This document shows positions 21,359 to 41,560 of a stretch of 64,000 nucleotides of DNA, one piece after another. Under the pieces are notes generated by a model, which was not told where the DNA came from, did not search any database, and saw nothing but the letters and a program-made list of their open reading frames with translations. The DNA is taken from the NCBI GenBank assembly GCA_016871155.1, contig VFZO01000003.1, forward strand, positions 1,663 to 65,662, given 5' to 3'. The first letter of the stretch is position 1; each line of letters starts with the position of its first letter. This stretch comes from Acidobacteriota bacterium (GTDB lineage: Bacteria; Acidobacteriota; Terriglobia; Bryobacterales; Bryobacteraceae). Both the position numbers and the translations under genes were made by a program.

Positions 21359-21823
21359 ATGCGAAAACTTCTCATAGCCCTCAGCCTGATTGCCCTGCCC
21401 GCCTTTCCCCAATTGGCAACAAAGAAGACACTCACCCTGGAAGCTGCCAAGAAGATCGTTGCAGCAGCTGAAGCGGAAGCCCGGAAAAACAACTGGAACG
21501 TGGTTATTTGCGTGGTCGATGAAGGCGCCAGCCTGCTCTTTTTGGAGAAGATGGACGGCACCCAGATCGGGTCAGTCGACATCGCCCAGATGAAGGCTCG
21601 CACCGCGATCAAAATGAAGCGTCCATCCAAAGTCCTTGAGGACGCCGTGGCCGGCGGCCGCAACGCCGTGCTGAAACTGCCGGACGTATTGCCGGTAGAA
21701 GGTGGCTTGCCGTTGACCGTGGACGGCGCGTTTATCGGAGCGATTGGCGTCAGCGGTGTGACCTCCCAGCAGGACGGTCAGATCGCCGCCGCCGGTTTGG
21801 CAGCCCTCGCTTCCATGAAGTAA
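21359..21823 (+). CDS. GlcG/HbpS-like (DUF336) haem-degrading/haem-binding family protein, secreted
   Basis: Signal peptide [18 protein letters not shown], then [36 protein letters not shown]...[16 protein letters not shown], the DUF336 pattern. Confidence 0.8.
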
Positions 21824-25449: not shown

Positions 25450-25484
25450 CTAGCGATTAGACCGCAAAACGGCGCCCGGTAGGG

Positions 25485-25673
25485 TTAGGGAATATTGGCT
25501 TCCACCGGTTTCGGAGGAATCGTGAACCGCCGCCCAAACGAGGTCGAGTTTGCGTTCTGCTGGTAGGACTCCATCGCCTCGCGGTTTTCGGGGCGATTCG
25601 GGCAAATCGCACAACGAGTGCCGGTGCACTTGTACGTTTCGCAACAAACTGTCCGAACCATGATCAACGACAT
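25485..25673 (-). CDS. hypothetical small Cys-rich protein
   Basis: 62-aa ORF (or 58 aa from MVRTV...) with five Cys in 14 residues (CCETYKCTGTRCAIC). It sits in a lower-GC gap between the TBDR stop and the kinase start and is preceded by a good sigma70-like promoter. No family recognised. Confidence 0.4.
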   Translation of the reverse strand: MSLIMVRTVCCETYKCTGTRCAICPNRPENREAMESYQQNANSTSFGRRFTIPPKPVEANIP

Positions 25674-25684
25674 TGCTTTTTACT

Positions 25685-25712
25685 AGGATACCTGAATGCA
25701 AACCGATTGCAA
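25685..25712 (-). promoter_or_regulatory. candidate sigma70-type promoter for the Cys-rich small ORF
   Basis: Minus strand: TTGCAA (25712..25707), a 16-nt spacer, then TATCCT (25690..25685). The predicted start site is only about 5-10 nt upstream of ATG 25673, so the mRNA would be near-leaderless. Confidence 0.25.
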
Positions 25713-25735
25713 GTATCTCTTGAAAATTTTTCCGC

Positions 25736-28700
25736 TCAGAACGCGAGGCGCAAACCGAACTGCATGCGCCGAGGCTCTAAGGCGGACAGAATACGCCCAA
25801 AATTGACGTTTAGGTTCGTCTCTACCTGTCCCGGTAGCGGGCGGCTGGGTTGAAAACCGGTGTTCGGCAAGTTGTAGTTTACGGTATTCAAAGCGTTAAA
25901 CAGCTCCCACCTGGTCTCCAGCCGGAACCGCTCTTTCAGGCTGAACGTCTTGAACAGCGAAAAGCTCAAGTCGTTCAGGCCGGGGCCGCGCGTCGACGGC
26001 AGCGTGCGTGGCGCGTTGCCGATGGTGAAATCCGGGGGATTTGCGAAAGCCTGGGTATTGAACCAGCGTGCGGGAGTCCGCTCTCCGCGCGGCAGAGTTG
26101 GATTTCCGGTTACGTTGGGGTAGCCGATGCCGGTGAAGTTGTTTGTCCCGCGCACCACCAGCGGCGTGCCCGTTTGCAGAGTCCAAATCCCATTCAACTG
26201 CCAACCGCCGAATGCGCCGCGCGTCATCCGGCCGGAGTTTTTGGCAAAGGGCAGTTCCCACAGGCCGCTCGCCACCATGCGCTGGGACACGTCGTCGGAG
26301 TCAATGGCCCGGTCGATTCTCCGGTTCAAACGCCCGATCCGGTAGTCGCCGGAGCCGGCAGCGGCGTCGCCGCCGCCCCCGATGGCCTGGCTCTCGCTGA
26401 TCAGCTTGCTCTTGGTGTAGCTCAACAGCGCGGAGACGCCGCCGGAGAAGCGCTTCTCGAGCGAGGCCTGCAAGGAGTGGTAGATGGTGCTGAGGCCGTT
26501 GTTCGCCCAAGTCGACACCGAGCCGTAGTCGGGAAAGGGCCGCAAAATTTGCTGCCTCTGCACGCGCGCCGCGCTGAGCGGTCCCGCTGTGATTTGTCCG
26601 AAGTACGGGTTGTCCACCAAATCCTGCAAACGCAATCCGAACGCGAAGTGCACGGGGTCCAACTGGTTCAGGTTGTAGTTCGCGCCGAACAACTTCGTCC
26701 CCTTGCTGCCCGCGTAGACGCCGGACACAACCCAACCGGCGCCGGCCGCGCGTTGAATCGCAAAATTCCACTGTTGTATGTAGGGAGTCTGCGCACCACG
26801 CGTCTGCGCGCGCACGTCCAAGCCGCGGGAAGCGCTAGGGCCGCCCGCCGCGCCCAACGGCTGGACCAGGGAAGCGGGGCCGGCGCTGTACCGGAACGCT
26901 CGTTCGATACCAGGCTGGGCCGAGGCGAACGGCGTGTCCACCGAGTAGCCGAAAGCGTTGGCGTTGTCCGGATTCAGGTTGCCGGATTCAACCATCGAGT
27001 AAATCAAGCCGTAGGCGCCGCGAATCGCCATGCGGCCGTTCCCCTTCGGATCCCAGGCGAAACCGAATCGCGGGCCAATATTGTTGTGGTCGCGATCGAC
27101 AATCGTCCGCGGATAGTCCCCCGCCCCGGCGTAGTTGAGTACTCCGGGTAGCCGGGTTTGCGGATTGATCGCCACCGGATCGAAGTTCGACGCTCGATTG
27201 TGCAGTTCGGTCCCGCCGAAGCTGGCGTCGTAGCGAACGCCTAGGTTCAGGGTCAAGCGGCGTGTGATCTTCCAGTCGTCCTGCAGAAATACCGCGAACG
27301 GGTTGGCGCGGAACTGGAAAAACGGCCGAACGCCCAGCGTTCCGCTCGAAACCTCTCCCAGCAAGAACGTCGCCATGCCGAAACCGGTGCCGGCCGGGCT
27401 CTGCGGATTGTTCGTCAGGTCGGCATTGAAGTTAAACGAACCCGACGGCTGCGAACGGTTGATAAAGCTCAACCGCCACCACCGAAAATCGGTGCCGGCC
27501 TTGAAGTTGTGATTGCCCCGCGTGATAGTGAGCGAGTCGGCGATCTGAATAATCTGCTGCGCGCGCAGTCCGCCCGAAAACGCCGCGCTGCCGATGTTGA
27601 GCAGTCCCGCTACCTGCACCGGCGGAAACTGATCCTGCGGAATGATGGACGGATAGCCAAGCTGTCGCGGCCAGTTCTGATCGAAGCTGGGATGCAGGAA
27701 AGGCAGCCATTGGCGGGTGGCGCCGAATCGAAAATCGTTGAGAATCGACGGCGACAGAATTTTCAAGTGGTTCAACACGGCGTTGTGGTTGTCGCGTTGG
27801 TCGTTGCGCGCCGATGGATCGGCTGGCCCCAGGCCCCAGCCGCGGTCGTTCCGCGTATTGCGCGTGGACGAATAGCGGAAAAAGATCGAATCCGCGTCGT
27901 TAAACCGGTGATCGATACGCGTATTTGTCACTCCTTGATCCGAGAGCGATCCAACAAGCGAGACGAAATTGTTTGTGTTCGTATTCGTGTCCGTCGGCGT
28001 GGCGTTCGGCAACGGCATGAACGGCAGAACCTTTAGCGACAAGGGGTCCATCCGGTTCTGCGGCACGATGTTGTTCGGAAACAGGTCGCGGATCGAACCG
28101 GCGCCGTTGGGATTCCGGCGCGTGGTGGCCGGGTCATAGATGGGGATTAAACCTCCCTGGGGCGTGCGCGTCGCAGAAAAGTTTCCGGCGCGCTGCAAAT
28201 CGGTTGCGACCGTGCCGATACGCGGCGAGCCGGTCGACCGCCACTTCCACTGCTCATAACCGGCGAAGAAGAACGTCCGGTTCTTGCCGTTGTAGATCTT
28301 CGGAATGAGCACCGGCCCGCCCACGGTTCCGCCGAAATGGTTGTAGCGCAGCACCTGCTTGATCCGGCCTGTGCGCCGATCGGGCTGTGTCGAAAACACA
28401 TTGCGAGCGTCCAGCGCGTCGTTACGAAGAAAGTGATAGAGACTGCCGTGAAACTCGTTGCCGCCTGACTTCGTCACGGCGTTCACAACGCCGCCCGACG
28501 TCTGGCCGAACTCGGCCTTCAGCGCGTTCGTCTCCACGCGGAACTCGGCCACCGCGTCCACCATCGGCACCACACTGATCTCGTTGTGGACCGCCGCGGA
28601 GTTGGAAACGCCGTCCAGGAAGAACTGGTTGCCGTAGGCCGGGCCGCCGTTGATCCGGATCTGCGAAAACCCCTGATTGCTGATCTCCGCGAAGCCGTCG

Positions 28701-29185
28701 GTCGTGTTGATCCTCGGCGTCACACCGGCCACGACCTTCACCAGATTGAACACATGCCGCCCATTCAAGGGAAGTTCTTCGATACGCTTCTGCTCGACGA
28801 CGGTGCCAAGCGAGGAGTCCTCCGTTTGCACGCGCGCCACCTCCGCGGTGACGATCACGCTCTCGGTCACCTGGCCTATCTCGAGCTGCACGTCGACCCG
28901 AAGCCGTTGGGCGACTTCAACGATCAAACCGCTGCGCCGCACACTTTTGAAACCGGTCTGAGCCAGCGTCAGCTCATAGCGGCCCACCGGTATCGAAGGA
29001 ATTACGTAGGTTCCGTCGCCGGACGTGGCACCCCTGAAAGTCAGGTTCGTCGACGTATTGCGAACCACGACCTCCGCGCCGCCCACGCCAGCCGACTGCG
29101 GATCGGTCACAGTGCCGGTGATTGTGCCAAGAGGAGATTGGGCAAAGCCAGGAATCGCCAGCAACAACAACGCGAAGCGTGCCAT
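25736..29185 (-). CDS. TonB-dependent receptor with N-terminal carboxypeptidase-regulatory-like domain (TBDR-2)
   Basis: Signal peptide MARFALLLLAIPGFAQS. Has a GTITGTVTDPQSAGVGGAEVVV...GTYVIPSIPVGRYELTLAQTGF CarboxypepD_reg module, a plug region (LPLNGRHVFNL), a long beta-barrel and a C-terminal ...FGLRLAF. Confidence 0.9.
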   Translation of the reverse strand: MARFALLLLAIPGFAQSPLGTITGTVTDPQSAGVGGAEVVVRNTSTNLTFRGATSGDGTYVIPSIPVGRYELTLAQTGFKSVRRSGLIVEVAQRLRVDVQLEIGQVTESVIVTAEVARVQTEDSSLGTVVEQKRIEELPLNGRHVFNLVKVVAGVTPRINTTDGFAEISNQGFSQIRINGGPAYGNQFFLDGVSNSAAVHNEISVVPMVDAVAEFRVETNALKAEFGQTSGGVVNAVTKSGGNEFHGSLYHFLRNDALDARNVFSTQPDRRTGRIKQVLRYNHFGGTVGGPVLIPKIYNGKNRTFFFAGYEQWKWRSTGSPRIGTVATDLQRAGNFSATRTPQGGLIPIYDPATTRRNPNGAGSIRDLFPNNIVPQNRMDPLSLKVLPFMPLPNATPTDTNTNTNNFVSLVGSLSDQGVTNTRIDHRFNDADSIFFRYSSTRNTRNDRGWGLGPADPSARNDQRDNHNAVLNHLKILSPSILNDFRFGATRQWLPFLHPSFDQNWPRQLGYPSIIPQDQFPPVQVAGLLNIGSAAFSGGLRAQQIIQIADSLTITRGNHNFKAGTDFRWWRLSFINRSQPSGSFNFNADLTNNPQSPAGTGFGMATFLLGEVSSGTLGVRPFFQFRANPFAVFLQDDWKITRRLTLNLGVRYDASFGGTELHNRASNFDPVAINPQTRLPGVLNYAGAGDYPRTIVDRDHNNIGPRFGFAWDPKGNGRMAIRGAYGLIYSMVESGNLNPDNANAFGYSVDTPFASAQPGIERAFRYSAGPASLVQPLGAAGGPSASRGLDVRAQTRGAQTPYIQQWNFAIQRAAGAGWVVSGVYAGSKGTKLFGANYNLNQLDPVHFAFGLRLQDLVDNPYFGQITAGPLSAARVQRQQILRPFPDYGSVSTWANNGLSTIYHSLQASLEKRFSGGVSALLSYTKSKLISESQAIGGGGDAAAGSGDYRIGRLNRRIDRAIDSDDVSQRMVASGLWELPFAKNSGRMTRGAFGGWQLNGIWTLQTGTPLVVRGTNNFTGIGYPNVTGNPTLPRGERTPARWFNTQAFANPPDFTIGNAPRTLPSTRGPGLNDLSFSLFKTFSLKERFRLETRWELFNALNTVNYNLPNTGFQPSRPLPGQVETNLNVNFGRILSALEPRRMQFGLRLAF

Positions 29186-29197
29186 TCCAGCAGTGTA

Positions 29198-29869
29198 CTA
29201 TCGCGTATCGAAACGGAGTGTGAAAATCAGCGTAACCGATTGGTACCGTTTTCCTTCGTACGTGCCGGCCACCGGCTCTTTCACCGCAACGTGCAACTGC
29301 CATTCTCCCGGACCTTGCAGATGGAACGAAAACTCCCCGGCTTTGCCCGTGGTGGCCTTCATGGCGCCCGGTGGAAGTTCGCCGCTCTCGCTCTTGTCGT
29401 GTTTGTGCTCTCCGTCGTGTCTGCCTTGCTCCGACGTGTAGGCCGATATCAAGGCACCCGCCAATGGTTTGCCGTTCCGGAGAAGGCGGAACCGGCCCGG
29501 ACCCGTCCCAACGATATCGACGGGCAATGTCTCAGGACTGTGCTTTGCGACGCCGCCACGAAACGCTTTCGCACCATAGAGCACCAGCGTGGCCGGACCG
29601 TGGCCCTCATAGACGCCGTACGTGTGGCTCATGGGGTATCCGGCAGCCGCACCCAAATCCAGCGCATCGCTCTCCACCTTGGCTTGTACCGGGCCGTACC
29701 CGCCCTTCTCATCGAGTGTCCAGAGTTTGGCCTTCTGAAAACCCTCAATCCGGGCACCCGTCATCCGGTCGTGCGGAAACACGCCAAAATGGAGCTTCCC
29801 ATTGGTCTCAATCCATGGCCAGTGCGCAAACGCCGGCACGGCAAGTGCTAAAAACGTGAATTTTTTCAC
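29198..29869 (-). CDS. DUF4198-like periplasmic protein with His/Asp/Glu-rich loop
   Basis: Start placed at GTG 29869 (VKKFTFLALAVPAFA signal peptide), overlapping the upstream stop (GTGA). The mature N-terminus HWPWIE... resembles the H-x-F-W start of DUF4198. The loop GRHDGEHKHDKSE is encoded at 29425..29387. Track ORF 29198..30220 over-extends. Confidence 0.7.
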   Translation of the reverse strand: MKKFTFLALAVPAFAHWPWIETNGKLHFGVFPHDRMTGARIEGFQKAKLWTLDEKGGYGPVQAKVESDALDLGAAAGYPMSHTYGVYEGHGPATLVLYGAKAFRGGVAKHSPETLPVDIVGTGPGRFRLLRNGKPLAGALISAYTSEQGRHDGEHKHDKSESGELPPGAMKATTGKAGEFSFHLQGPGEWQLHVAVKEPVAGTYEGKRYQSVTLIFTLRFDTR

Positions 29870-30222
29870 GGCAGTTTTCCTCCCTCCGGCACATACACGA
29901 TCTCTCCGTTTTGCAAGCGGTACGCGGTTCCCAACCGTTCGCCGGCGCCGCGGCCCTGCTCGCCGGTTGCTTTGAGGGTCTCGATCTTGTTTCCCTTCTT
30001 GATCACCATCTCCATATCCGGCTTCCCAGGATTCGTGACGATAGTCACATCCTGTTGGGAGAGCCGCGCCGCCATGCCGGCAACGTTGCCCTTCGAGAGC
30101 AGCGCCAGCAGCATGGCGACGACAAGAACTATGCTGGCGTCGAACAGGTTGATCAAGCCAAGCAGCGGATCGGCGCTGTCTTCTCCCTGGCCGCGAAAAC
30201 GGTTCCCGGTGCGGCGCCACAT
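29866..30222 (-). CDS. single-pass membrane protein in ExbD/TolR position (DUF2149-like)
   Basis: MWRRTGNRFRGQGEDSADPLLGLINLFDASIVLVVAMLLALL has one TM after a charged N-terminus, then a small soluble domain. The ATG at 30222 is 1 nt after the TBDR-1 stop. The family assignment (DUF2149 versus ExbD) is from memory of the NLFD...TM pattern. Confidence 0.6.
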   Translation of the reverse strand: MWRRTGNRFRGQGEDSADPLLGLINLFDASIVLVVAMLLALLSKGNVAGMAARLSQQDVTIVTNPGKPDMEMVIKKGNKIETLKATGEQGRGAGERLGTAYRLQNGEIVYVPEGGKLP

Positions 30223-30223
30223 A

Positions 30224-33058
30224 TCAGAACACAACCTTCAGCATCATCTGGAACTGCCGCGCTTCGCCTGCAGTGAGAATTCGACCGAATAGGGCGTTAC
30301 CTAGGTTGTTGATCGGCACGTCGTAGTTGGCGCGGTTCAGAGAGTTGAACGCCTCGGCGCGGAACTGCGCCTGCCAGCGTTCGGTCAGCCGGAACGTCTT
30401 CTGCAGAGAAACGTTCAGGTCGAAGAAGTTCGGGGCCACCTCGCTATTCCTTCCCAGCGTGCCCACGGTACCATTGGCCGGCACGACGTTGGAGCCCGGA
30501 ACAAGGGAGAACCACTGGCTTCCCCGGCGCGTCCGGTCGATGGTACCCGGCAGCGCGTGAATGCGGTTGTTGAGCGTTCCGAACGGGTTGTTCGAATTGG
30601 CCAGCAAGGAGAACGGAGTGCCGCTGCGCCGGAACACAAGGCCCGTCAACTGCCAACCGCCCCAGGGAAGATCATAGACGGAGTAGAGCGTTAGCAGGTG
30701 CGGCTGGTGGAAATCGGAAACCGCGCGGTCCAGGTTGAAGTTCCGGTCGTCAATCGGCAGCAGCGCCGTGTCGGAAGCATTGTCGATGGCCCGAGAAAAC
30801 GTGTAGGTCGCGCGGACGGATAGCTTGCGGCTCCACTGTGTGTTTAACGAAGTCTGAAACGCGTTATAGTTCGACATCGCGCCTGCCGACAGATACGTGA
30901 CCACCCCGGTCGAAGGGTCCGGCCGCAGATTCGGTGGAAGGTTCTCACCGCCGTTGGGGCGCAACGTCCGGGGCAGTTTCAAACCGCGGTTGCCAACATA
31001 TGCCACACTCAGCACCGTGCCCGGATTAAACATCTTGCGTTCGATTGTCAGGTTCCAGTTCTGCACATAGGGATTGACGAGCGACGAATCCACCCGATAC
31101 CGGTCGGATCCGATAACCGCCCCGGCCAGCAGATCCGGGAACCGGGGCATAAACCGGGAGAACGTCGTCACCTGCGGGGGCGTGTAGCGCGATTGGGCGA
31201 TGAAGTCCATCTGCAGCGGCGAGTAGAACATGCCATAGCCGCCGCGCAGGATGGTTGCGCTCTTTCCCCCGATATCCCAGGCAAATCCAGCGCGAGGCGC
31301 GAAGTTGTTGCGGTCAGCCGCGTAGCGCTGTGACAACCGGCCAAACTTCTCGCTTGGCACGCCGTAGTACTCGTGCCTCAGCCCGAGGTTGAACGTCAGG
31401 TGCGGCATGGCCTTCCAATCGTCTTGCAGGTACCAGCCCATTTCCCGGTTTCTTTGATCGATCCGGCTATCGCCGATCGCCCGCGAGTACGTCAGTGGCG
31501 CGCCGGCCAGGAATGCCGGAATCGACGGGAAGATCATGGTCCCATTAAAGTTGCGATCACTCGTGGAGTTGTACTGGATCATGCGAGCGATCACGCCGCC
31601 CTTCAACACATGCCGGCCCAGCGTATAGCTCAAATCGTCCGCGAAGGTGAAGTTATGCGTTCGGGTTTGAGTGGGGGGTATGAACGTGCCGAGGCGGGGC
31701 AGGCCAGTGACAAGCAAGAGGCCGATGCGCCCGTTCACCGCCGGATCCCCCATGGACGGTGTGGACGGAGTGACCTGCGAATAGTAGGTGGAGTACGTAC
31801 CGCGAAACTGATTGAACGTACGGGAGCTGAGAGAAGAGTCCAGGCTCACCACGGCGGAGTGCGAATGATTGACCGTGTCGGCGTTACCGGCGCCGAGCCG
31901 GTCACGCGTCGGGCCGATCGCGTTCACCCAGTTCCGGCGCGCGGCTAGACGATGCTTCACGGAGACCTGATAGTCCAAACGCACAATCCCCGTAAGCGTT
32001 GTCGTGGGACTGGCGACTGCAGCGCTCTGTAGATTTGTGCCGGGAATGTTCGGCTCCGGGTAGTAGGTGAGCAACGGCCGTACGGCGGGAACGGCACGAG
32101 CCCGATCAGCGGCGGTGAGCGTGGCGATCGTCGACGATGAGCGAAACGCATTGCGCGAGTTCACCTCATAACCGCCAAAAAAGAAGAGCCGGTCCTTTCG
32201 AAGGGGCCCACCGAGCGTCACGCCCGGCATATTCACGCGAACCGGATTTCGAGAAGTCAGCAATGTATTTCGCGCATTCAGCGCCTCGTTTTGAAACAAG
32301 TAGTAGGCCGAGCCGTGCCAATCGTTCCCGCCTTGCTTCGTCACGAGATTCACCACAGCGCCCGACGCCCGTCCGAACTCCGCCTTGAAATTCGATGTCT
32401 GCATCTCGAACGCTTCGACAGTCTCCATGGAGACCGGTTGTTCGGTCAAACCGCGGCCGAGGAGATTACCCGATACCGGATCGTTGTACTCCGCCGAATC
32501 GACCATCGTATTCACAGCGCCGATCGGCCGGTTGCCATTCACCGTAAACGGAGCGTGCGCCGCCGACGCGAACCCGACGCCCGGCGTTTGATACGACAAC
32601 GCGCGGTAGTTACGGCCCTGCCCGCCGGCGATCATCGGAATGTTGGCGACTTCGCGCGGTGTGTAGTTGGAGCCGCGTACGCCGCTAGCGGCTACACGTT
32701 CGATCTCCGCCACGCGGCCCTCCACAACCACGGCCTCGCGCACGGTGCCCAACTCCAACCGGACCGTGCGCGAAACCTCCTGACCAGCGATCAATTCGAT
32801 GCCGCTGGCCTTGTAGCTGTTGAAACCGTCCTTCTCGACCGCCAGCGAGTAGCTTCCGGTCACCAGCCCGGGTACGCGGAACATGCCAGCGTCGGTCGTC
32901 CGCATGGTGCGGGTCTGGTTAGTCGACGCAGACTTAACCGTCACCAGCGCGTCGTTGATCGGCCCGCCGGCCGGATCGAGTACGGATCCACTCAGATATG
33001 CGTTAATTCCCTGGGCCATTACAAATGGCGCGGCGAACAGAGTTATTGCTAGTTTCAT
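30224..33058 (-). CDS. TonB-dependent receptor with N-terminal carboxypeptidase-regulatory-like domain (TBDR-1)
   Basis: Signal peptide MKLAITLFAAPFVMAQG. Has a LSGSVLDPAGGPINDALVTVKS...GMFRVPGLVTGSYSLAVEKDGF module, a plug, a barrel and a C-terminal ...MMLKVVF. The ATG at 33058 overlaps the cobN-like stop (ATGA). Confidence 0.9.
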   Translation of the reverse strand: MKLAITLFAAPFVMAQGINAYLSGSVLDPAGGPINDALVTVKSASTNQTRTMRTTDAGMFRVPGLVTGSYSLAVEKDGFNSYKASGIELIAGQEVSRTVRLELGTVREAVVVEGRVAEIERVAASGVRGSNYTPREVANIPMIAGGQGRNYRALSYQTPGVGFASAAHAPFTVNGNRPIGAVNTMVDSAEYNDPVSGNLLGRGLTEQPVSMETVEAFEMQTSNFKAEFGRASGAVVNLVTKQGGNDWHGSAYYLFQNEALNARNTLLTSRNPVRVNMPGVTLGGPLRKDRLFFFGGYEVNSRNAFRSSSTIATLTAADRARAVPAVRPLLTYYPEPNIPGTNLQSAAVASPTTTLTGIVRLDYQVSVKHRLAARRNWVNAIGPTRDRLGAGNADTVNHSHSAVVSLDSSLSSRTFNQFRGTYSTYYSQVTPSTPSMGDPAVNGRIGLLLVTGLPRLGTFIPPTQTRTHNFTFADDLSYTLGRHVLKGGVIARMIQYNSTSDRNFNGTMIFPSIPAFLAGAPLTYSRAIGDSRIDQRNREMGWYLQDDWKAMPHLTFNLGLRHEYYGVPSEKFGRLSQRYAADRNNFAPRAGFAWDIGGKSATILRGGYGMFYSPLQMDFIAQSRYTPPQVTTFSRFMPRFPDLLAGAVIGSDRYRVDSSLVNPYVQNWNLTIERKMFNPGTVLSVAYVGNRGLKLPRTLRPNGGENLPPNLRPDPSTGVVTYLSAGAMSNYNAFQTSLNTQWSRKLSVRATYTFSRAIDNASDTALLPIDDRNFNLDRAVSDFHQPHLLTLYSVYDLPWGGWQLTGLVFRRSGTPFSLLANSNNPFGTLNNRIHALPGTIDRTRRGSQWFSLVPGSNVVPANGTVGTLGRNSEVAPNFFDLNVSLQKTFRLTERWQAQFRAEAFNSLNRANYDVPINNLGNALFGRILTAGEARQFQMMLKVVF

Positions 33059-36000
33059 TGATTTCTCCTGCGAACACCAAACAAGAAGACGGCCGCCAGC
33101 GCCGTCACAGCCGCACCGCCGAGCAGCGAGTTGCGAACCGTGGCCGGCATAGGAGCGGACTGCGATTCGCGAACCAGCTTTTGGCCCGCGACCAGGGCGG
33201 ACGCCGGCGAGTTGGCCGAACGGCGGAGCGCCTCCGAAAAGTTCTTCGAAAGCAATGTCCCGCTCTGGTTGCCCGGAGCGTTCAAATGCTTTTGCACGAA
33301 CGCCTGCAACGCCTGATTTCCCGTTGTGCGTTCACCGCCGGAGGTTCCGTGACGCGCCACCGATCCGGCGAAATCGTTCGCCAGCCGCTCCAGCGTTTGC
33401 GCGTCAGCCTTCCAATATCCGTTTCTGGCAGCCTCCAACAGGACGGCCGAAAGGTTTTGGAACGCATAGGGGTTCTTCTTGTCGAACCACTCCTTCATTC
33501 CTAGCTTCTCGCGGTCATCCACGTATACCGCGTGAATCTCGTCCCACACATAGCTCTTCACGGCATCCGGTTTGGTCACCTGCCAGCCATACAGGTTGGA
33601 CGAGAGTTTCGCGATTTCGGAGGCGCCGGAGAAGTCGTTCTTTTTCATGCCTTCGATCCACTTCCGGTTCCAATATTGCGCCCGCAAATCCGTGACCAGC
33701 GCCTCTTCCACTGTCTTTACGCGGGTCTTACTCACGTCGCGCGTATCCGCCATGTAGGCTGCGGCATTCTGGCCCGTAGTATCGCGGATAGCCATCACCA
33801 TCCCGCCCGAGTACTCAAAATAGTGGTCCAACGTAAGCGCCGAAATTGTATTCGACGAGTGAGAGATCGACACGGCCTCCGTACCCTTCAACGCAGTCTC
33901 GTAGAGCTTCGGCGTCTTCTGGCCCCACGGGACCCCCTGTGTATAGACCGCTCCGGCGCGCTCCAAATACTCGGCGGTCAGTTCTTTTGTGCTGGTATAT
34001 CCGCCGGAATTCGAGACGCCGCCAGTCAAGCCGGTTCCGTATCCGCCGGGCCCATTCGAGAAGACGCGGGCGTTCGATAGCTGCCGCGCCTCCTTGGCTG
34101 ACAGACCCGCCTCCTTCAGCGCCAGTTCTATCTCGGTGGAGCCTTGCGCCACGTAATTCTCACCGTCGGTGGCCAGCACAGCCAGCCGCACTGCCTTGTC
34201 CAACAATTCCATCCGGTCGGGGAATGAGTCGCGGAACTGTCCCGCCGCCTGCAGAACGACATCCACACGGGGCCGCTGCAACTCGGTCATAGGAATCACT
34301 TCCAGGTCGATCACAATGCCCCGCTGATCCCACACTGGTTTCACGCCCATCAGATAAAGGGCTTGGGCCAAGTCAGCGCCGTATTGGCGAACCAGTTCGG
34401 TCGGCCACAGGTTGAATCCGGCTTTTCTCGGATACCGTCCCAGGCGCTTCTTCTCCGCCTGAAGCAACTGCTGCCCTAACTGAACGCCAACCTCCCATGC
34501 TGCGCGCGTTGGGATCTCGGCTGGGTTCACACCATAGAGGTTCCGGCCCGTGGGCAGCGCCGCCGGCGTACGAACCGGGTCTCCACCGCCCCCTGGCCGG
34601 ACGTACCGGCCGTCCAGTGCGCGCAGCGTTTGTTGAATCTCCAACGCGGATTCGGCGAACGCGGCTTTCAAAACGGCTACGCGCGTGGCATCGTCGGAGG
34701 ACGCGGGCAGGGGCGCCTCGGTTTCAAACGCCATGCTCACCGGGCTGTTTGCCTGTCGCTGTGCAACGCCTGGCGGCGGCGAGCCGATTTTGGGAATCCA
34801 TGCCGGATGCCCACTGGCAATGGGCGCCGGCTTTGCGGGCTGCGTCTCCGGCGCGTACGAGCGCTTGCCACTACCCGGCGTCGGCGCCATCGGGCGGGTG
34901 AAGGACGCTGGAGAAATAGCGACGGCCGGCGCAGCCGCCATTAACTGGCCCACACGTTCGGCGGCGCGGCGCCGATCGTTGTTCGAGGCCTTCAGAAAAC
35001 CGGATCCAAGGGTCTCCGCAATCGATAAACGCAGATCGCGGTCTTCGTCCGCAACGCCGTGAACGTGCATGCCCACGGGAATGCGCGACTCCTCCAACTC
35101 ATCCAAAAACGCGTCCAACCGCGATACCTGCTCGTCGTCCGGTGGAGATTTTCGGAAGTCCAGCCGGAGATCTTGATCCAGCTTCCGCGAAGTTGCGATC
35201 TCGCGAATGCGCGCGCGCATCTTCTCCTTTAGCGCTCCTGCCTCGGTCTGCAGGAACCGCTGCGTTTCGCGATAGAGATCGGCCACTTCTTGGTCGGATT
35301 CCGAAAGCTGCGCGGCCTGAATCGGCGGTGTCTGGTGGCTCACCAACACCGCGGAGCCTCTTCGCTTCGCAATCAGACCCTCGCCGACGTTGTCCATCGT
35401 GTAGACGTAGATGTTCGGGAGGGCGGCAACCACGCGATCGGACCAGTCGTCGTCCAGCTGTCCCACGGACCGGCCAGGCAGGAACTCATACGTTCCGTGC
35501 GTACCGTAGTGCACCAAGGCGTGAGCCTTATGCTCGTGCTGTAGCCACCAATACACCGCCAAGTACTGGTGGGGCGGCGGTACGGTGTCGGAGTGTGCAA
35601 GCTTGGAGTCCATCACTGCGCCGCGGGCCGGCTGGGGCAGCAGCGTGACGTTGCCAAACTGCAACGTTGGAATCACGAAGTAATCCTTGCCATCTTTGCG
35701 CGCCGCCATGAAGGTACCGGGCGCCGGGCCGTATGCCGCGGTCACGGCGGTACGCAACGTCTCCGGCAAGGTCGCGAACCACTGGTTGTATCCCTCCACC
35801 GGCAGCAGCGTCACTCCTCGCTCCGCAACCAGCTTTTCCAGTTCGCCGGGCTCGGCTTCGCTTACGTTGCGCCCGCGACCCTGCATCATTTGCAGCAGCG
35901 CCTCCGGGTCCCGAGGGGGGTTCTGCACGTTGTATCCCGCCGCCTGCATCTCCGCAAGGAAACGCACCAGGCTGCGCGGAACGTTCAGACCCGACGCGGT

Positions 36001-37146
36001 GAAATCCGCCTTACCGATCCCATTGAAATAGACGACAGCGACGCGTTTCTCCGCCTTCGGCGTCCGGCGAAGCGCCACCCATCGTTCGGCCCTGTCGATC
36101 ACGCGCTCAATCCGCGATTCAATGGGCGCCTCCACACGGCGTCCCTGACCGTCCTTCACCATGCCCTCAATCAACGTCGGCTCGATTGTGCCGTCCAGTT
36201 CGCTCACCACGGTTCCGATCGCAAGACCCGGCCCGCGGACGCCGTCCTTGGTGGCTTGATACTCGTCGATCGTCTTCTGTTCGAACATCAGCGTCAGGCC
36301 GCGCACCACGGGCGCGTCCACTTTGGTGTTCAACATCTCAACGCCGCGCTCCCCTTGATAGAAACGGCCGTGCGAGCGGTTGAGGATTAGATCGGGGCGA
36401 ATCTCTTCCAGGAACTGTCCCATTTGCGTCGCGCCAAACATCGGCGCCACATTGAAGTTCCGTTTTTCGAATGCGCGCACCAACCCGTCCGTGCCGGCCG
36501 TTATGCCCGTCTTCCAACCCTGCGCGAAGTCGATGGCAATCCACGGACGGTCTTTTTTCTCGCGGCCCGATTTGGCATACCACGCCTTGTAGCCGGCGGT
36601 GGATGTGTGGATCTCTTCGGAGTCCGGGTGGTAGAAGCCATTCTCCGGCAGTGGAGCGGGCGGCTCCACTCTCACGTCGCGGCCGGTGTATTCCTTCGTC
36701 AGGAAATTCAACAACCGCGCCCAGTTTTCTACGCCTCCGTTCGAAAAATAACCGGCCACGGGTTTGTCCCGCCCTTCGAATTCGGCGTTCCCGATTCGCA
36801 TGTTCGTGCTCTGCCGCGGCGGCAGCACGATGACCTTCGCGCCTGTGTTCACCGCATCGGTGAACGACTGCTGCGCCGGCTTCGAATACGGTTCTGCGCG
36901 CAAGCCATTCACAATCACCACTCGAAACGGAGAAAGCCCAAAAGGTTTCGCCGCCGCGTCTACGGTCTCGCGTGTCCACGCTTCAATGGCAATTCCGCTC
37001 TTCGCCGACGCCTTTTCCGCAAGCATCGTCAACTGGTCTGGGAAGCCAAGAAACAATATTTTCGGGCGTGTGACCGCGCGATAGGTAAAATAGCCGCCCG
37101 CCAGAACCGTAGCAGCAAATAGTCCGCTCCAAAGGTACCGTTTCAT
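33055..37146 (-). CDS. CobN/Mg-chelatase-family large subunit homologue, predicted bitopic-anchored (TM at both ends)
   Basis: 1363 aa with the CobN hallmark block ALVHYGTHGTYEFLPGRSVG. N-terminal TM MKRYLWSGLFAATVLAGGYFTY and C-terminal TM LLGGAAVTALAAVFLFGVRRRNQ. A Pro/Ala-rich linker lies mid-protein. ATGA overlaps occur on both sides. Confidence 0.85.
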   Translation of the reverse strand: MKRYLWSGLFAATVLAGGYFTYRAVTRPKILFLGFPDQLTMLAEKASAKSGIAIEAWTRETVDAAAKPFGLSPFRVVIVNGLRAEPYSKPAQQSFTDAVNTGAKVIVLPPRQSTNMRIGNAEFEGRDKPVAGYFSNGGVENWARLLNFLTKEYTGRDVRVEPPAPLPENGFYHPDSEEIHTSTAGYKAWYAKSGREKKDRPWIAIDFAQGWKTGITAGTDGLVRAFEKRNFNVAPMFGATQMGQFLEEIRPDLILNRSHGRFYQGERGVEMLNTKVDAPVVRGLTLMFEQKTIDEYQATKDGVRGPGLAIGTVVSELDGTIEPTLIEGMVKDGQGRRVEAPIESRIERVIDRAERWVALRRTPKAEKRVAVVYFNGIGKADFTASGLNVPRSLVRFLAEMQAAGYNVQNPPRDPEALLQMMQGRGRNVSEAEPGELEKLVAERGVTLLPVEGYNQWFATLPETLRTAVTAAYGPAPGTFMAARKDGKDYFVIPTLQFGNVTLLPQPARGAVMDSKLAHSDTVPPPHQYLAVYWWLQHEHKAHALVHYGTHGTYEFLPGRSVGQLDDDWSDRVVAALPNIYVYTMDNVGEGLIAKRRGSAVLVSHQTPPIQAAQLSESDQEVADLYRETQRFLQTEAGALKEKMRARIREIATSRKLDQDLRLDFRKSPPDDEQVSRLDAFLDELEESRIPVGMHVHGVADEDRDLRLSIAETLGSGFLKASNNDRRRAAERVGQLMAAAPAVAISPASFTRPMAPTPGSGKRSYAPETQPAKPAPIASGHPAWIPKIGSPPPGVAQRQANSPVSMAFETEAPLPASSDDATRVAVLKAAFAESALEIQQTLRALDGRYVRPGGGGDPVRTPAALPTGRNLYGVNPAEIPTRAAWEVGVQLGQQLLQAEKKRLGRYPRKAGFNLWPTELVRQYGADLAQALYLMGVKPVWDQRGIVIDLEVIPMTELQRPRVDVVLQAAGQFRDSFPDRMELLDKAVRLAVLATDGENYVAQGSTEIELALKEAGLSAKEARQLSNARVFSNGPGGYGTGLTGGVSNSGGYTSTKELTAEYLERAGAVYTQGVPWGQKTPKLYETALKGTEAVSISHSSNTISALTLDHYFEYSGGMVMAIRDTTGQNAAAYMADTRDVSKTRVKTVEEALVTDLRAQYWNRKWIEGMKKNDFSGASEIAKLSSNLYGWQVTKPDAVKSYVWDEIHAVYVDDREKLGMKEWFDKKNPYAFQNLSAVLLEAARNGYWKADAQTLERLANDFAGSVARHGTSGGERTTGNQALQAFVQKHLNAPGNQSGTLLSKNFSEALRRSANSPASALVAGQKLVRESQSAPMPATVRNSLLGGAAVTALAAVFLFGVRRRNQ

Positions 37147-38204
37147 GAACGATGACTCCGTTCCAACTCACATTCCGTGACCGCTTGTCCGAACCATTGG
37201 TCGAGCAGAAAGCTCATGCGAACGGTGTCCCGCTCGTACCACGCTTTTCGATACACGCTGATCGCGTAGCACACGCCGCCCGTCAACAGTCCCAATACGG
37301 TCGTCGTAAAGCCGATTTGCAAATTGGCGCCCATCGCTTGCATGTCTCCCTTCGCCAGTCCCGCGAGCGCCGGCTGCAGGGGAATCAGCGTTCCAATCAA
37401 TCCCAACATGGGCCCCGTTTTGGCCATGATGCCCAGGCGATCCAGTCGTGCATGCATCGTGTTTTCGATACCGGCTAGTGCCAGCCCCAACTGCGCGGAT
37501 GGCAGCGTCCTGACGGCGTCCTGAAAAGTTCGCCAATCGCCCCGCAAGCGCAGCGTGGCGAACCGCTCGAGGCTCGTTTCGCCGCGCAGAAAACTCTCCA
37601 CTACAGCGCATGTCTCACGCTGCTCCGCGAAGTCAGCCAGAAATCGAGCGGTCACCCAAACGCCATAGCCAAAAGCGGCGAGTGTTCCCACGAGCGTCGG
37701 CATCAAAAACGCGCTGGACAAGACGTAGAGAATGTCGTGAATGGAGTTCATATCGTTTGGAGAAGGAATCAGCAAAAGAGCGGAGAGATGAGCGGCCGTG
37801 GAAAGCGAGGGCCATGCGGGAAGTAACCGGCCCAGTGTTACTCCAGCCAGGACCCAGACAGTGCCCATCGCGGCTCCGGCGGCCAGTCCGTTGGAGAACC
37901 AGGGAGTCTGCAAAAGCGCTAGCGACCCCGCAATCGCCGCCAATCCGAAGAGCGGAGCCGGCAGCCGCCGCACCGCCGTCCACGGCGCAAACGCAATGGC
38001 GGCCTGCGCCACCAGGATCGAGACCCAAACTAGTGGCTCGCGAATCCAACGGACCGCGGCCTCGAGTGCGACCTGATCCGCCCACCATCCAGCCGCAACG
38101 CACACTGCGAAGGGCGCCGCCCATTGCCGGCCGCGCAATGATGCCGCATCGAGCAGCCATTGCAGAACGGCGATGATGAGCAGGATTGCAGTGATCGATG
38201 TCAT
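37143..38204 (-). CDS. MotA/TolQ/ExbB proton-channel family protein with an extra N-terminal polytopic domain
   Basis: The C-terminal half MAKTGPMLGLIGTLIPLQPALAGLAKGD...ANLQIGFTTTVLGLLTGGVCYAISV is the MotA/TolQ/ExbB channel signature. About 150 additional N-terminal residues form about 5 hydrophobic helices. Confidence 0.8.
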   Translation of the reverse strand: MTSITAILLIIAVLQWLLDAASLRGRQWAAPFAVCVAAGWWADQVALEAAVRWIREPLVWVSILVAQAAIAFAPWTAVRRLPAPLFGLAAIAGSLALLQTPWFSNGLAAGAAMGTVWVLAGVTLGRLLPAWPSLSTAAHLSALLLIPSPNDMNSIHDILYVLSSAFLMPTLVGTLAAFGYGVWVTARFLADFAEQRETCAVVESFLRGETSLERFATLRLRGDWRTFQDAVRTLPSAQLGLALAGIENTMHARLDRLGIMAKTGPMLGLIGTLIPLQPALAGLAKGDMQAMGANLQIGFTTTVLGLLTGGVCYAISVYRKAWYERDTVRMSFLLDQWFGQAVTECELERSHRS

Positions 38205-38224
38205 GATGATGCGAATGCGTTAGC

Positions 38225-38267
38225 AATTAGAATAATTGATAATACCCTCTCACTACATCTCGCGCAA
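38225..38267 (-). promoter_or_regulatory. candidate promoter of the exbB-like/cobN-like operon, overlapped by an AT-rich Fur-box-like element
   Basis: Minus strand: -35 TTGCGC (38267..38262), a 17-nt spacer, then -10 TATTAT (38244..38239). The plus strand at 38225..38245, AATTAGAATAATTGATAATAC, contains the NATWAT hexamers AATAAT and GATAAT separated by one T. This is the most AT-rich patch of the neighbourhood, 21-41 nt upstream of ATG 38204. Confidence 0.3.
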
Positions 38268-38304: not shown

Positions 38305-38979
38305 ATGCGAGGGATCGGTTTGGCATTCATCGCAATTGCAGCGGCAGCGCAGGAAGGTGCGATGCTCTTCCAGAAGCACTGTTCGTACTGCCACGGCGCT
38401 GGCGGAGAAGGCGGTCGCGGACCGGATCTCGCGAGCGGACGGTTTCAGCATGCGCGGAATGATGAAGAGTTATTCTTGGTTATCCGGAACGGCGTGCGCG
38501 GCACGGAGATGCCGGCTGTACGCGCCACAGTTGACGAGGTCCGTGCGCTGATGGCCTACGTGCGCTCGCTCCGTGTGCGCGGGGAAAAAACTTCCTCCGG
38601 CGACGCTGCCGCTGGCGAGCGCCTATTCGCACAGTGCGCCGGCTGCCATCCGGCCATCGGCCCTGATCTGCGCACTTCCTCCTTTCGCGGCGCAGCCTTC
38701 ATTCGAGACTCGATAGTCAAGCCTGAGGCCGAGATCGCTGCCGGCTTCCGCGCCATTATAGTGACGGCGAAAGACGGTGTCACAGTATCCGGTATCCGGT
38801 TGAATGAGGACGACGTGTCCGTGCAGTTGCGCACCGCCGATGGCGCGCTGCATTCGCTCCTGAAGGCGGGTGTGGTTTCGATCGATCGCAGCCGGCCGTC
38901 GCTGATGCCGGCGTTCGCCGGACGCCTGACCGAAAAGCAGATCGACGATCTGACCGCTTACGTCATGGGGATGCGATGA
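38305..38979 (+). CDS. dihaem c-type cytochrome (second domain of the Pirellula/Verrucomicrobium-type haem-binding family)
   Basis: Signal-like MRGIGLAFIAIAAAAQ. Has CSYCHG...GPDL and CAGCHP.IGPDL....IRDSIVKPEAEI....DG....G......D.V.V......G.........SLMP....L....IDDLTAYV. Confidence 0.8.
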   Translation: MRGIGLAFIAIAAAAQEGAMLFQKHCSYCHGAGGEGGRGPDLASGRFQHARNDEELFLVIRNGVRGTEMPAVRATVDEVRALMAYVRSLRVRGEKTSSGDAAAGERLFAQCAGCHPAIGPDLRTSSFRGAAFIRDSIVKPEAEIAAGFRAIIVTAKDGVTVSGIRLNEDDVSVQLRTADGALHSLLKAGVVSIDRSRPSLMPAFAGRLTEKQIDDLTAYVMGMR

Positions 38980-40574: not shown

Positions 40575-41560
40575 TGCGCTGGGCGATTTGGGCTGCGTCA
40601 ATCGCCTTCGCGCAGGACGGTGCAACGCTTTTTCAAGAGCACTGCGCCCGCTGCCATTCCATCGCTGGCCGGGGCGGCGCCGTGGGCCCGGATCTTGCCT
40701 GGATCGCCCTGGCGCGCACACCCGCACAGTTGCGCAAAGCGCTGCTGGAACCTTCGGCGGAGATTTTCGACGACTTCGCAACCGCAACTGCCGGTGGCGT
40801 CACCGGTGTAATTTTGAACGAGGACGATCTGTCAATCCAGTTGCGGCTGGCCGATGGTTCCATGCGCACGTTTCCGCGCGCATCCGCCCGGCGCACGGGC
40901 GCGTCCCTTATGCCTCCGTTTCGCTCGCTGCCGGCTCCTCACTTGGAGGCCCTGATTCAATACCTCCACACTCTGCGGGGCCAGCCAGTCGAGGCGCGGC
41001 CCAGGCAGCGCACCATTGCAAGGCTCGCCGAGTCGACAGCTTGGATGACACGGCCAAGCCGCGAGGAAGAGGAACGCCCGGAGCAGGTCCTGGACGCGCT
41101 CGCGCTGCGTCGAGACGACACCGTGGCCGATGTAGGCGCCGGCGGTGGCTTTTTCACCGGACGTATCGGACGGCGTGTGCACAAGGTAATCGCGCTAGAC
41201 GTGCAGGCTTCGGCGCTCGAGGCCAATCGCAAACAGATGCCTCCGGGCGTCAATGCGGAGTTTCGCCTCGGCTCCGATCTCGATCCCGCTTCGGTCGACG
41301 CCCTGTTGGTCGCCAACTCCTACCATGAGTTCGCGGAACCGGAAAAGATGCTGGCGATGCTGCGCGCCTCCCTGAAGCCCGGTGGCAGAATGCTGGTAAT
41401 CGAATACCAGAAGGAGAAGCCGGGCCTGCCCATTAACGAGACGCACAGGATGAGTCTGGAGGAGTTGCGAACCGAAATTGAGCCCGCCGGTTTCCGCCTG
41501 GAGCGAATTCTAGATTTTCTCCCGATGCAACACGGTCTCCTCTTTACGGTCGCCAAATAA
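40574..41560 (+). CDS. fusion protein: signal peptide + c-type cytochrome domain + class I SAM-dependent methyltransferase domain
   Basis: N-terminus MRWAIWAASIAFAQDG then LFQEHCARCHSIAGRGGAVGPDL...LLEPSAEI...GVILNEDDLSIQLRLADGSM...SLMPPF...LEALIQYL (same haem domain as gene 38305). The C-terminus has VADVGAGGGFFTG (motif I) ...LVANSYHEF...LKPGGRMLVIEY. The start ATG shares one nt with the upstream TGA. Confidence 0.8.
   Translation: MRWAIWAASIAFAQDGATLFQEHCARCHSIAGRGGAVGPDLAWIALARTPAQLRKALLEPSAEIFDDFATATAGGVTGVILNEDDLSIQLRLADGSMRTFPRASARRTGASLMPPFRSLPAPHLEALIQYLHTLRGQPVEARPRQRTIARLAESTAWMTRPSREEEERPEQVLDALALRRDDTVADVGAGGGFFTGRIGRRVHKVIALDVQASALEANRKQMPPGVNAEFRLGSDLDPASVDALLVANSYHEFAEPEKMLAMLRASLKPGGRMLVIEYQKEKPGLPINETHRMSLEELRTEIEPAGFRLERILDFLPMQHGLLFTVAK

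Follow-up and report, generated by a model that had tools for sequence, protein, structure and literature searches.

The subject of this analysis is a six-gene operon on the minus strand of a 64-kb stretch of DNA (the window) from a freshwater acidobacterium, built around a CobN-like chelatase subunit. We read the operon as an envelope system that takes up metallo-tetrapyrroles and strips them of their metal, using a four-part core (TonB-dependent receptor, CobN-like protein, MotA/ExbB-like protein and DUF2149 protein) that it has in common with the hmu operon of Bacteroidota and with PA1922-PA1925 of Pseudomonas aeruginosa (PA1922-25); we give this reading a probability of roughly 55%. It is carried by the HmuS-like sequence and catalytic residues of the CobN-like protein, by its predicted membrane anchors, and by the linkage of such proteins, across phyla, to the same two membrane partners. 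The arrangement is already known in kind, through hmu, PA1922-25 and a cluster of Geobacter lovleyi. New are a sister clade of HmuS with its own set of kept and lost markers, the link to a DUF4198 protein, and the evidence for linkage across domains of life, by which the MotA/ExbB-like and DUF2149 proteins are reassigned to the chelatase.

An operon built around an HmuS-like chelatase subunit

The first-pass annotation described six closely packed genes, and this description agrees with the list of open reading frames (ORFs), the sequence and independent gene calls: six ORFs, all on the minus strand within 25736-38204 (Table 1), are joined, in gene order, by two successive ATGA overlaps, a 1-nt gap, a GTGA overlap and a 12-nt gap, and gene calls on the JGI and Logan assemblies of the same organism gave identical lengths (353, 1363, 944, 118, 223 and 1149 aa). 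The closest genome records are metagenome-assembled genomes of Bryobacteraceae and Bryobacterales, at ~75% identity. Searches with profile hidden Markov models upheld the domain assignments of all six proteins, the DUF4198 match standing just short of its cut-off (see below). A Pfam scan covered every non-overlapped ORF of at least 300 aa in the window and most of the smaller ones; none of the scanned ORFs encodes ChlI, ChlD, CobS, CobT, TonB or HmuY, as had been claimed for the AAA+ partners, TonB and HmuY. A scan for terminators and promoters inside the operon gave nothing above the shuffled expectation, which is consistent with a single transcript and proves nothing, and no terminator-like hairpin was found 3' of the last gene.

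The CobN-like protein matches Pfam CobN-Mg_chel over positions 2-1090 of the 1090-position profile with 998 bits. All nine NCBIfam equivalog models for CobN/BchH score below their cut-offs (the best with 798 bits against 1248), and the best match in the PDB is HmuS of Bacteroides thetaiotaomicron (9d26, 640 bits), followed by ChlH (410) and CobN (390). The acidobacterial clade comes out as sister to Bacteroidota HmuS in a neighbour-joining (NJ) tree built from 116 members of the superfamily, and the two share a half of the tree that does not contain canonical CobN, ChlH and BchH; local identity to Bacteroidota HmuS homologues is 33-41%. HmuS was shown only in 2025 to be the first true biological haem dechelatase; its authors pointed to many homologues outside Bacteroidota, among them archaeal ones, whose role is unknown.

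The residues implicated in HmuS catalysis are His-538, Glu-577, Asp-1208 and His-1209, and its H538A variant is inactive (PMC12583661). By pairwise alignment to 9d26 and by the alignment of the 116 sequences, these correspond to H550, E589, D1107 and H1108 of the window protein, while H259 corresponds to His-254, an HmuS-specific ligand that, together with Met-79, axially coordinates the site-1 haem (PMC12583661). His-538 and Glu-577 are kept across the chelatase superfamily; canonical CobN has Gly, Ser or Ala at position 254 and Asp at position 1209 (HmuS numbering). Catalytic site 2 of HmuS is thereby present in the window protein and the site-1 pair is incomplete, His-254 being kept and Met-79 replaced. 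The domain IV insertion lies at the same place as in HmuS and measures 145 aa between the anchor motifs.

The protein begins with a signal-anchor (hydrophobic segment at aa 5-24) and ends with a transmembrane helix (aa ~1338-1357) and the residues RRRNQ; in alignment, this helix coincides with the C-terminal helix of HmuS. Because a transmembrane helix is predicted at each end, the bulk of the protein should face the periplasm, which supports the envelope location first suggested for it; HmuS is likewise membrane-bound and reported to be periplasm-exposed (PMC12583661, PMC13227078). We regard the protein as a putative metallo-tetrapyrrole dechelatase. Since two HmuS markers are missing, we use the term HmuS-like and do not count the protein in the HmuS family in its authors' sense. 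Their definition comprises at least 50% identity to B. thetaiotaomicron HmuS and a complete hmuYRSTUV operon (PMC12583661); here identity stays within the range given above, HmuY is absent and HmuT is not detectable.

The first gene of the operon encodes two membrane modules. Its C-terminal part (aa ~152-335) is a three-helix channel domain of the MotA/TolQ/ExbB type, with hydrophobic segments at 157-184, 266-284 and 297-317 and a Pfam MotA_ExbB match at aa 238-327 (37.6 bits against a cut-off of 22.9). The best PDB sequence matches are the stator subunits MotA and PomA, at weak E-values of 0.05-0.4. Its N-terminal ~150 aa form, judging from their hydrophobic segments, a domain of 4-5 helices. 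Some acidobacterial relatives encode this domain as a gene of its own: in a more distant locus (L088) a separate 180-aa membrane protein aligns to aa 42-147 of the window protein (E 6e-4) and to the fused protein of a close relative, L001 (E 1e-4); on these alignments the first gene is a fusion, and fusion or fission of the N-terminal module within the clade is supported. This module occupies the position of HmuT in Bacteroidota or of DUF2162 in archaea. Homology of the module to HmuT was considered and dropped: BLASTP against HmuT and archaeal DUF2162 was negative, and profile-profile comparison with hhalign gave probabilities of 0.4% and 8.7%.

The DUF2149 protein (Pfam PF09919, 98.8 bits against a cut-off of 27.1) is predicted to span the membrane once, with an N-terminal helix, and to carry a small beta domain in the periplasm. 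Its AlphaFold model, with a predicted local distance difference test (pLDDT) score of 68, has a helix at 19-54 and six strands. An NLFD motif in the membrane helix (N25, L26, F27, D28) is invariant in 54 DUF2149 homologues. ExbD and TolR also have an essential conserved membrane Asp, and in position, single-pass architecture and membrane Asp the DUF2149 protein is like ExbD, in architecture only. The earlier description of this protein as ExbD-like could not be upheld as a statement of homology: the ExbD Pfam model gave no match even at E <= 10, the DUF2149 profile returned no ExbD or TolR chain from the PDB, and Foldseek, run on a model of moderate confidence, found nothing below E 0.5.

Linkage of the chelatase to its membrane partners across phyla

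The trio of MotA/ExbB-like, DUF2149 and CobN-like genes occurs in Bacteroidota (as HmuU, HmuV and HmuS), in a Pseudomonadales locus with the PA1922-25 layout (L046), in one Planctomycetes locus and in seven archaeal loci. The archaeal CobN-like proteins have signal-peptide-like N-termini and C-terminal helices, and no receptor match was found in the archaeal trio loci. The DUF2149 gene adjoins the MotA/ExbB-family gene in Bacteroidota, Proteobacteria, Archaea and the acidobacterial loci L088 and L089; in the window and in its nearest relatives the two are separated by the CobN-like and receptor genes. The pair is in every case joined by a third membrane domain, which takes the HmuT or DUF2162 position.

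To count this linkage we took loci with a full-length CobN-like gene and flanks of 2.5 kb or more on both sides. A neighbouring DUF2149 gene is present in all 13 loci whose CobN-like protein has a C-terminal anchor and in none of the 29 whose protein lacks one (Fisher 4e-11). Archaea have no outer membrane, and since they keep the MotA/ExbB-like and DUF2149 pair, the pair cannot serve solely to energise receptors; from this distribution it most likely works with the chelatase. The initial suggestion that the two proteins are tied to the chelatase and are not a spare ExbB/ExbD set is strengthened both by the archaeal trio and by the count of 13/13 against 0/29.

Within the Acidobacteriota, the order MotA/ExbB-like, CobN-like, first receptor (TBDR-1), DUF2149 and DUF4198 is kept in four Bryobacterales loci (L001, L003, L004 and L007), and truncated contigs agree with it as far as they reach. 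The second receptor (TBDR-2) is found in none of the close-relative loci that have enough downstream sequence. In the more distant acidobacterial loci the four core genes persist in another order and with other genes added: L083 has the core with an upstream ABC-2 transporter, L088 has the order 180-aa protein, MotA/ExbB-like, DUF2149, CobN-like and receptor, and L089 has three receptors. Conservation of the complete six-gene order, as originally proposed, is thus only partly borne out: five genes hold together in the nearest clade, TBDR-2 does not belong to the set, and DUF4198 is confined to that clade. We take the conserved unit to be four genes, with DUF4198 specific to the nearest clade and TBDR-2 to this population. 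Apart from the L081/L082 genome, all acidobacterial loci examined have the CobN-like, MotA/ExbB-like, DUF2149 and receptor genes linked. In that genome, at 9194-15615 of L081, a paralogue lies between an ATP-binding cassette (ABC) ATPase gene and a PQQ_2 propeller gene, with no MotA/ExbB, DUF2149 or receptor gene nearby; a DUF2149 gene (P0209) is probably located elsewhere in the L081 genome.

Several of the more distant loci have distinctive neighbours. The archaeal cassette consists of DUF2162 (a predicted transporter), MotA/ExbB-like, DUF2149 and a secreted CobN-like protein of 1525-1656 aa (L009, 5613-13888), and the same cassette is seen in L010, L011, L012, L025 and L028. Genes for NikR and an EamA transporter lie divergently upstream of it in L009 and L011, and genes for CbiA- and CobQ-type amidotransferases lie downstream in L025, which suggests a nickel- or corrinoid-linked role in those archaea. 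In a locus from Halobacteriota (L008, 68-12595) three CobN-like paralogues of 1079, 1486 and 1484 aa stand in tandem, with a DUF2149 gene between the second and the third. In Variovorax (L087, 1-14000) the trio lies inside a cobalamin salvage cluster with a btuB-like receptor gene, cbiA, cobU, btuFCD, cobO, a bluB-like gene, cobD and cobC.

Receptors, DUF4198 protein, promoter and surroundings

Both TonB-dependent receptors match Pfam CarboxypepD_reg, OMP_b-brl_4 and TonB_dep_Rec_b-barrel, the barrel matches being strong. The CarboxypepD_reg domain is N-terminal in TBDR-1, and the sequence after this domain in the receptors contains TonB-box-like motifs (EAVVVEG and ESVIVTAE); no separate Plug match at E <= 0.01 was reported for either. 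Orthologues of TBDR-1 directly follow the CobN-like gene in L001, L003-L007, L048, L083, L088 (61% identity) and L089 (48%), which makes TBDR-1 the conserved receptor partner of that gene. A PDB sequence search returned no solved TonB-dependent receptor matching TBDR-1 at E <= 0.01, and NCBIfam was uninformative too. TBDR-2 is present in assemblies of the same population and absent after DUF4198 in L001, L004 and L007, with convergent genes at that place in L001 and L004. What comes closest to it is an additional receptor downstream of the L089 cluster, with 35% identity. TBDR-2 is an accessory, population-specific addition outside the conserved unit. Its TonB-hemin match (21 bits against a cut-off of 317) was discarded as meaningless.

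The DUF4198 gene follows the DUF2149 gene in L001, L003, L004 and L007 only. The Pfam match (PF10670) reaches 33.9 bits against a cut-off of 34.0 and covers profile positions 136-208 only; the identical protein has PF10670 in its precomputed Pfam annotation, not flagged as weak or faint. The mechanical ORF list offers a 340-aa alternative whose additional N-terminal stretch is rich in arginine and runs, in a different frame, over the DUF2149 gene. We consider the 223-aa start correct: its GTG at 29869 stands behind a GGAGG, and translation from it begins with a signal peptide. This predicted signal peptide, KKFTFLALAVPAFA, would be cleaved before HWPW (the site reads ...AVPAFA/HWPWIE), leaving a predicted mature N-terminal His that is invariant in the three homologues that were retrieved and aligned. 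A His-rich loop, HDGEHKHD, is also present. A search against PDB sequences gave no match at E <= 1, and the AlphaFold model (pLDDT 44.7) is unusable. An N-terminal His is found in 79% of the DUF4198 family (PMC12537917), to which Zcp and IsDUF4198 belong, and the characterised members are periplasmic: one, Zcp, binds Zn (PMC12663993), and another binds Ni via its N-terminal His (PMC12537917). Because of the predicted N-terminal His and of these two metal-binding members, the window protein is, by analogy, a putative periplasmic divalent-metal binder. A 1719-aa alpha-2-macroglobulin-like protein encoded elsewhere in the window (within 4811-15438) has a CarboxypepD_reg domain that weakly cross-matches DUF4198; this shows that the DUF4198 profile, in its C-terminal half, is similar to a transthyretin-like sandwich.

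The operon and a divergent cytochrome c / pyrroloquinoline quinone (PQQ) dehydrogenase operon have a 100-bp intergenic region in common. For the operon studied here we recognise a promoter-like region with a -35 element TTGCGC (38267-38262), a 17-nt spacer and a -10 element TATTAT (38244-38239), directly followed by a 6-3-6 inverted repeat, CAATTAttcTAATTG, at 38238-38224; the leader is ~30-35 nt long. The region 38215-38244 is the most AT-rich 30-mer of the window (23 of 30 positions A or T, in a sequence of 61% GC). TTGCGN-N17-TATTCT, with the same spacing, precedes the orthologous first gene in L001-L007, and in relatives the conserved -35/-10 pair is followed by strong dyads specific to each locus, such as ATTCTCATC-N6-GATGAGAAT. 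We scanned the window with consensus sequences for Fur, Zur (three types), PerR, NikR, IdeR and Irr; those for Zur and Fur stem from other phyla and may not fit Acidobacteriota. No convincing match for Fur, Zur, NikR, IdeR or Irr was found at the operon promoter, Zur and Fur not rising above background. A PerR-like 7-1-7 match there, the best of the window with 10 of 14 positions, was not convincing. Riboswitch control was rejected, as no Rfam family reached its gathering score across the window; the intergenic region is too short for a cobalamin riboswitch.

Table 1. Genes of the operon and its promoter-like region (positions in the window)
Feature	Position	Strand	Description
MotA/ExbB-like gene	37143-38204	-	353 aa, polytopic inner-membrane protein
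CobN-like gene	33055-37146	-	1363 aa, class I chelatase large subunit, HmuS-like branch
TBDR-1	30224-33058	-	944 aa, TonB-dependent outer-membrane receptor
DUF2149 gene	29866-30222	-	118 aa, HmuV / PA1925 family
DUF4198 gene	29198-29869	-	223 aa, secreted
TBDR-2	25736-29185	-	1149 aa, second TonB-dependent receptor
Promoter-like region of the operon	38224-38267	-	hexamers and inverted repeat

In the surroundings of the operon, a tetrapyrrole cluster lies ~9 kb away at 47157-51240 (minus strand) and comprises a cobA-hemD fusion (uroporphyrinogen-III methyltransferase and synthase, 549 aa), hemC (porphobilinogen deaminase) and a gene for glutamyl-tRNA reductase; the 578-aa reductase has its Pfam domains from residue 161 onwards, leaving a 160-aa N-terminal extension that is unexplained or may reflect a mis-set start. 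A gene for an HbpS-like 'haem-degrading' protein (21359-21823, plus strand), divergent from a gene for an Rrf2-family regulator (20837-21283, minus strand), stands 4 kb downstream of the operon, and this pair could be a second haem- or iron-related module. The operon divergent from the promoter (38305-41560, plus strand) encodes a cytochrome c, a PQQ-dependent dehydrogenase and a cytochrome c-methyltransferase fusion, and PQQ-type propeller genes are also found near CobN-like genes in L081, L004 and L007. A periplasmic redox partner is conceivable, because HmuS needs an electron donor that is so far unidentified. Between TBDR-2 and a downstream Ser/Thr kinase gene lies a gap of 286 bp (25450-25735) with a promoter-like TTGCAA-N17-TATCCT and a small cysteine-rich ORF of 83 aa (motif CC..C..C..C) that is absent from the JGI gene calls. 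Finally, upstream of the operon region, several large secreted proteins are encoded at 4811-15438, among them, at 4811-7735, a tetratricopeptide repeat protein with MtrC-like multihaem cytochrome domains.

Known systems, the proposed reading and its alternatives

The hmuYRSTUV operon has been characterised for HmuY, HmuR and HmuS. Its likeness to the window operon extends through the whole core: a TonB-dependent receptor with an N-terminal CarboxypepD_reg domain; a CobN-like protein with a helix at each end, the His/Glu and Asp-His site and the His-254 equivalent; a MotA/ExbB-family protein (HmuU) with a DUF2149 protein (HmuV); an extra polytopic module beside the MotA/ExbB gene (HmuT there, the fused N-terminal domain here); and the lack of both an AAA+ partner and a TonB gene in the operon. 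The first-pass annotation drew a sharp contrast with hmu, which was overstated, since hmu contains the same pair of MotA/ExbB and DUF2149 proteins (PMC11681262). Differences nevertheless exist. The acidobacterial clade is sister to HmuS and does not fall inside it (~33-41% identity), the gene order is another and the receptor is no HmuR orthologue. Leu replaces Met-79, and the insertion is proline-rich instead of methionine-rich. The module in the HmuT position is fused and has no detectable homology to HmuT, HmuY is missing, a DUF4198 metal binder and a second receptor are added, and the host is a free-living tetrapyrrole prototroph.

PA1922-25, which was not mentioned in the first-pass annotation, unites the same core in one operon (PMC4542158, PMC9431628): a receptor, a CobN-like protein without CobST, a MotA/ExbB-family protein and a DUF2149 protein. 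Zinc depletion induces it 45- to 147-fold, and Zur binds to it (PMC4542158, PMC8531726, PMC9431628); as a Zur target it is well documented, while its biochemical function is unknown (PMC4542158, PMC8531726). Proteobacterial relatives of this type (L046; P0047-P0054) have a C-terminal anchor on the CobN-like protein, as in the window. Unlike the window protein, they belong to another clade of the CobN-like tree and most members examined lack the His-254 equivalent. The receptor of this operon type is a classical Plug and barrel receptor without CarboxypepD_reg, PA1922-25 has no DUF4198 gene, and Zur control is proven there, whereas no Zur box is recognisable in the window. Another precedent is the cobN-exbB-exbD-tonB cluster on plasmid pSZ77 of Geobacter lovleyi, described in 2012 with two receptors and no cobST, for which a function distinct from that of the classical cobaltochelatase was already proposed (PMC3403914). 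This cluster and that of Variovorax resemble the window operon in a CobN-like gene that lacks CobS/CobT and is joined to genes of the TonB-system type, and the two receptors flanking the pSZ77 cluster recall the two of the window operon. Both, however, lie among genes for cobalamin synthesis or salvage, and the Geobacter cluster has a TonB gene; cobalamin genes and a B12 riboswitch are both missing from the window operon. The classical chelatases CobNST and ChlH/BchH-ChlI-ChlD belong to the same large-subunit fold family (Pfam PF02514), with His-538 and Glu-577 conserved, but are cytoplasmic, soluble and driven by AAA+ ATPases, and they insert metal. The window protein, in contrast, is membrane-anchored, predicted to face the periplasm and linked to MotA/ExbB-like and DUF2149 genes, with no AAA+ partner gene nearby. 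A literature search found no paper on an acidobacterial version of the operon, in line with the previous statement that no acidobacterial example is known to have been characterised.

Taken together with hmu, the operon would work as follows; we infer the direction of the reaction, its substrate and metal, the role of the DUF4198 protein and the coupling to the proton-motive force. TBDR-1, and in this organism possibly also TBDR-2, would carry a metal-tetrapyrrole complex, most likely haem, into the periplasm. The CobN-like protein, anchored by its two terminal helices to the outer face of the inner membrane, would strip the metal at its HmuS-like His/Glu and Asp-His site. The secreted DUF4198 protein may capture the released divalent ion and deliver it to an importer whose gene lies elsewhere. 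The fused HmuT-position/MotA-ExbB-like protein and the DUF2149 protein would be obligate membrane partners of the chelatase and could plausibly form a proton-conducting unit that replaces the cytoplasmic AAA+ subunits.

A number of observations weigh against this scheme or parts of it. Met-79 of HmuS is replaced by L82, and Leu or Arg stands at this position throughout the acidobacterial clade. The domain IV insertion has 3 Met and 17 Pro in its 145 aa and is thus proline-rich; the long HmuS homologues examined (P0034, P0041 and P0044) have 14-26 Met. The haemophore HmuY is missing, TBDR-1 is at most related to HmuR by general fold (E 0.008), and no Fur, Zur or NikR box is recognisable at the promoter. 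With hemA, hemC and cobA-hemD encoded 9 kb from the operon, the organism is not auxotrophic for haem or tetrapyrroles. Relatives of the trio are found in B12 salvage (Variovorax), beside NikR (archaea) and under Zur (Pseudomonas; PMC4542158), so the family does not fix the substrate. The DUF2149 protein has no detectable homology to ExbD or TolR, and the paralogue in L081, 47% identical and with both terminal helices, stands alone beside an ABC ATPase gene. Finally, in vitro, soluble HmuS needs no HmuTUV to convert haem to protoporphyrin IX (PMC12583661), so that energy coupling is a hypothesis and is not required by the chemistry. HmuS being the closest characterised relative and His-254 being retained, haem is our best guess at the substrate. 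We hold this guess weakly because of the lost Met-79, Met-rich insertion and haemophore, the receptor unrelated to HmuR, the nearby tetrapyrrole genes, and the zinc, cobalamin and nickel contexts of trio relatives.

The core may also have another use, in which the operon would serve the acquisition of scarce metals as PA1922-25 may do: switched on when Zn, Co or Ni runs short, it would import a metal chelate or a corrinoid through its receptors, and the CobN-like protein would strip the metal or transfer it to DUF4198, iron and haem not being the main targets. The gene core is that of zinc-responsive, Zur-bound PA1922-25, with the same layout in L046, NikR adjoins the archaeal cassette, and the host makes its own tetrapyrroles. 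The only characterised DUF4198 proteins bind Zn or Ni (PMC12663993, PMC12537917), and the window protein has a His-rich loop; DUF4198 genes are, however, also induced by iron limitation in other bacteria (PMC12663993). The promoter offers no recognisable Zur or NikR box, and the model's prototype is itself of unknown function. Moreover, the NJ tree places the CobN-like protein beside HmuS and not in the proteobacterial clade, and it keeps the HmuS-specific His-254 that most proteobacterial proteins examined lack. We consider this use possible but doubtful.

The role of the membrane pair may also be read differently, whichever substrate model holds. According to the published working model for HmuU and HmuV, the two proteins energise the TonB-dependent receptor (PMC12583661, Fig. 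1 legend). Applied here, the MotA/ExbB-like and DUF2149 proteins would be a dedicated ExbB/ExbD pair acting on the receptors via a TonB encoded elsewhere, and the CobN-like protein would need no energy, which fits the activity of soluble HmuS in vitro without HmuTUV (PMC12583661). The MotA_ExbB domain of the first gene and the conserved membrane Asp of DUF2149, as in ExbD/TolR, agree with this proposal. The linkage does not: the pair accompanies CobN-like genes in archaea, which have neither an outer membrane nor receptors, it follows the anchored CobN-like proteins in 13/13 against 0/29 loci, and a third domain in the HmuT/DUF2162 position always goes with it. DUF2149 also lacks detectable ExbD/TolR homology or fold, and no TonB gene is found in the operon or the window. 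We therefore judge a dedicated receptor-energising pair rather unlikely. Far less probable again, indeed scarcely credible, is that the gene encodes an ordinary cytoplasmic cobaltochelatase CobN of aerobic B12 synthesis, with CobS/CobT elsewhere and transport genes beside it by chance. Databases do name close homologues 'cobaltochelatase subunit CobN', and a cobA-hemD gene is present in the window. We rejected this assignment on the NCBIfam cut-offs, all of which are missed by far, on the distance from canonical CobN in the NJ tree, on residues 254 and 1209, which are HmuS-type, and on the anchors at both ends, which canonical CobN lacks; in addition, the reading frame overlaps membrane and receptor genes, and no cob genes are adjacent.

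Returning to uptake and metal stripping as the preferred reading, the locus represents a well-conserved sister clade of HmuS in free-living Acidobacteriota that has kept the catalytic site and the membrane anchoring. The linkage pattern, in which anchored CobN-like proteins always come with MotA/ExbB-like and DUF2149 proteins, even where an outer membrane is lacking, may matter more than the locus itself. We tentatively suggest, as a minority possibility, that anchored CobN-like proteins form a class of extracytoplasmic chelatases or dechelatases powered by a proton-driven, stator-like unit instead of an AAA+ ATPase; this unit would consist of the MotA/ExbB-family protein, DUF2149 and the HmuT or DUF2162 module. 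If this is true, the value of the locus would rise: the operon would be a full pipeline from receptor through a dechelatase driven by the proton-motive force to a DUF4198 metal acceptor, and one engine would have been reused for haem, corrinoid, nickel and zinc in Bacteroidota, Proteobacteria, Acidobacteriota and Archaea. The linkage pattern offers a testable answer to what HmuT, HmuU and HmuV do, and to how the class I chelatase fold operates outside the cytoplasm without ATP. More broadly, the locus bears on how abundant soil and lake bacteria gain iron and trace metals from environmental tetrapyrroles.

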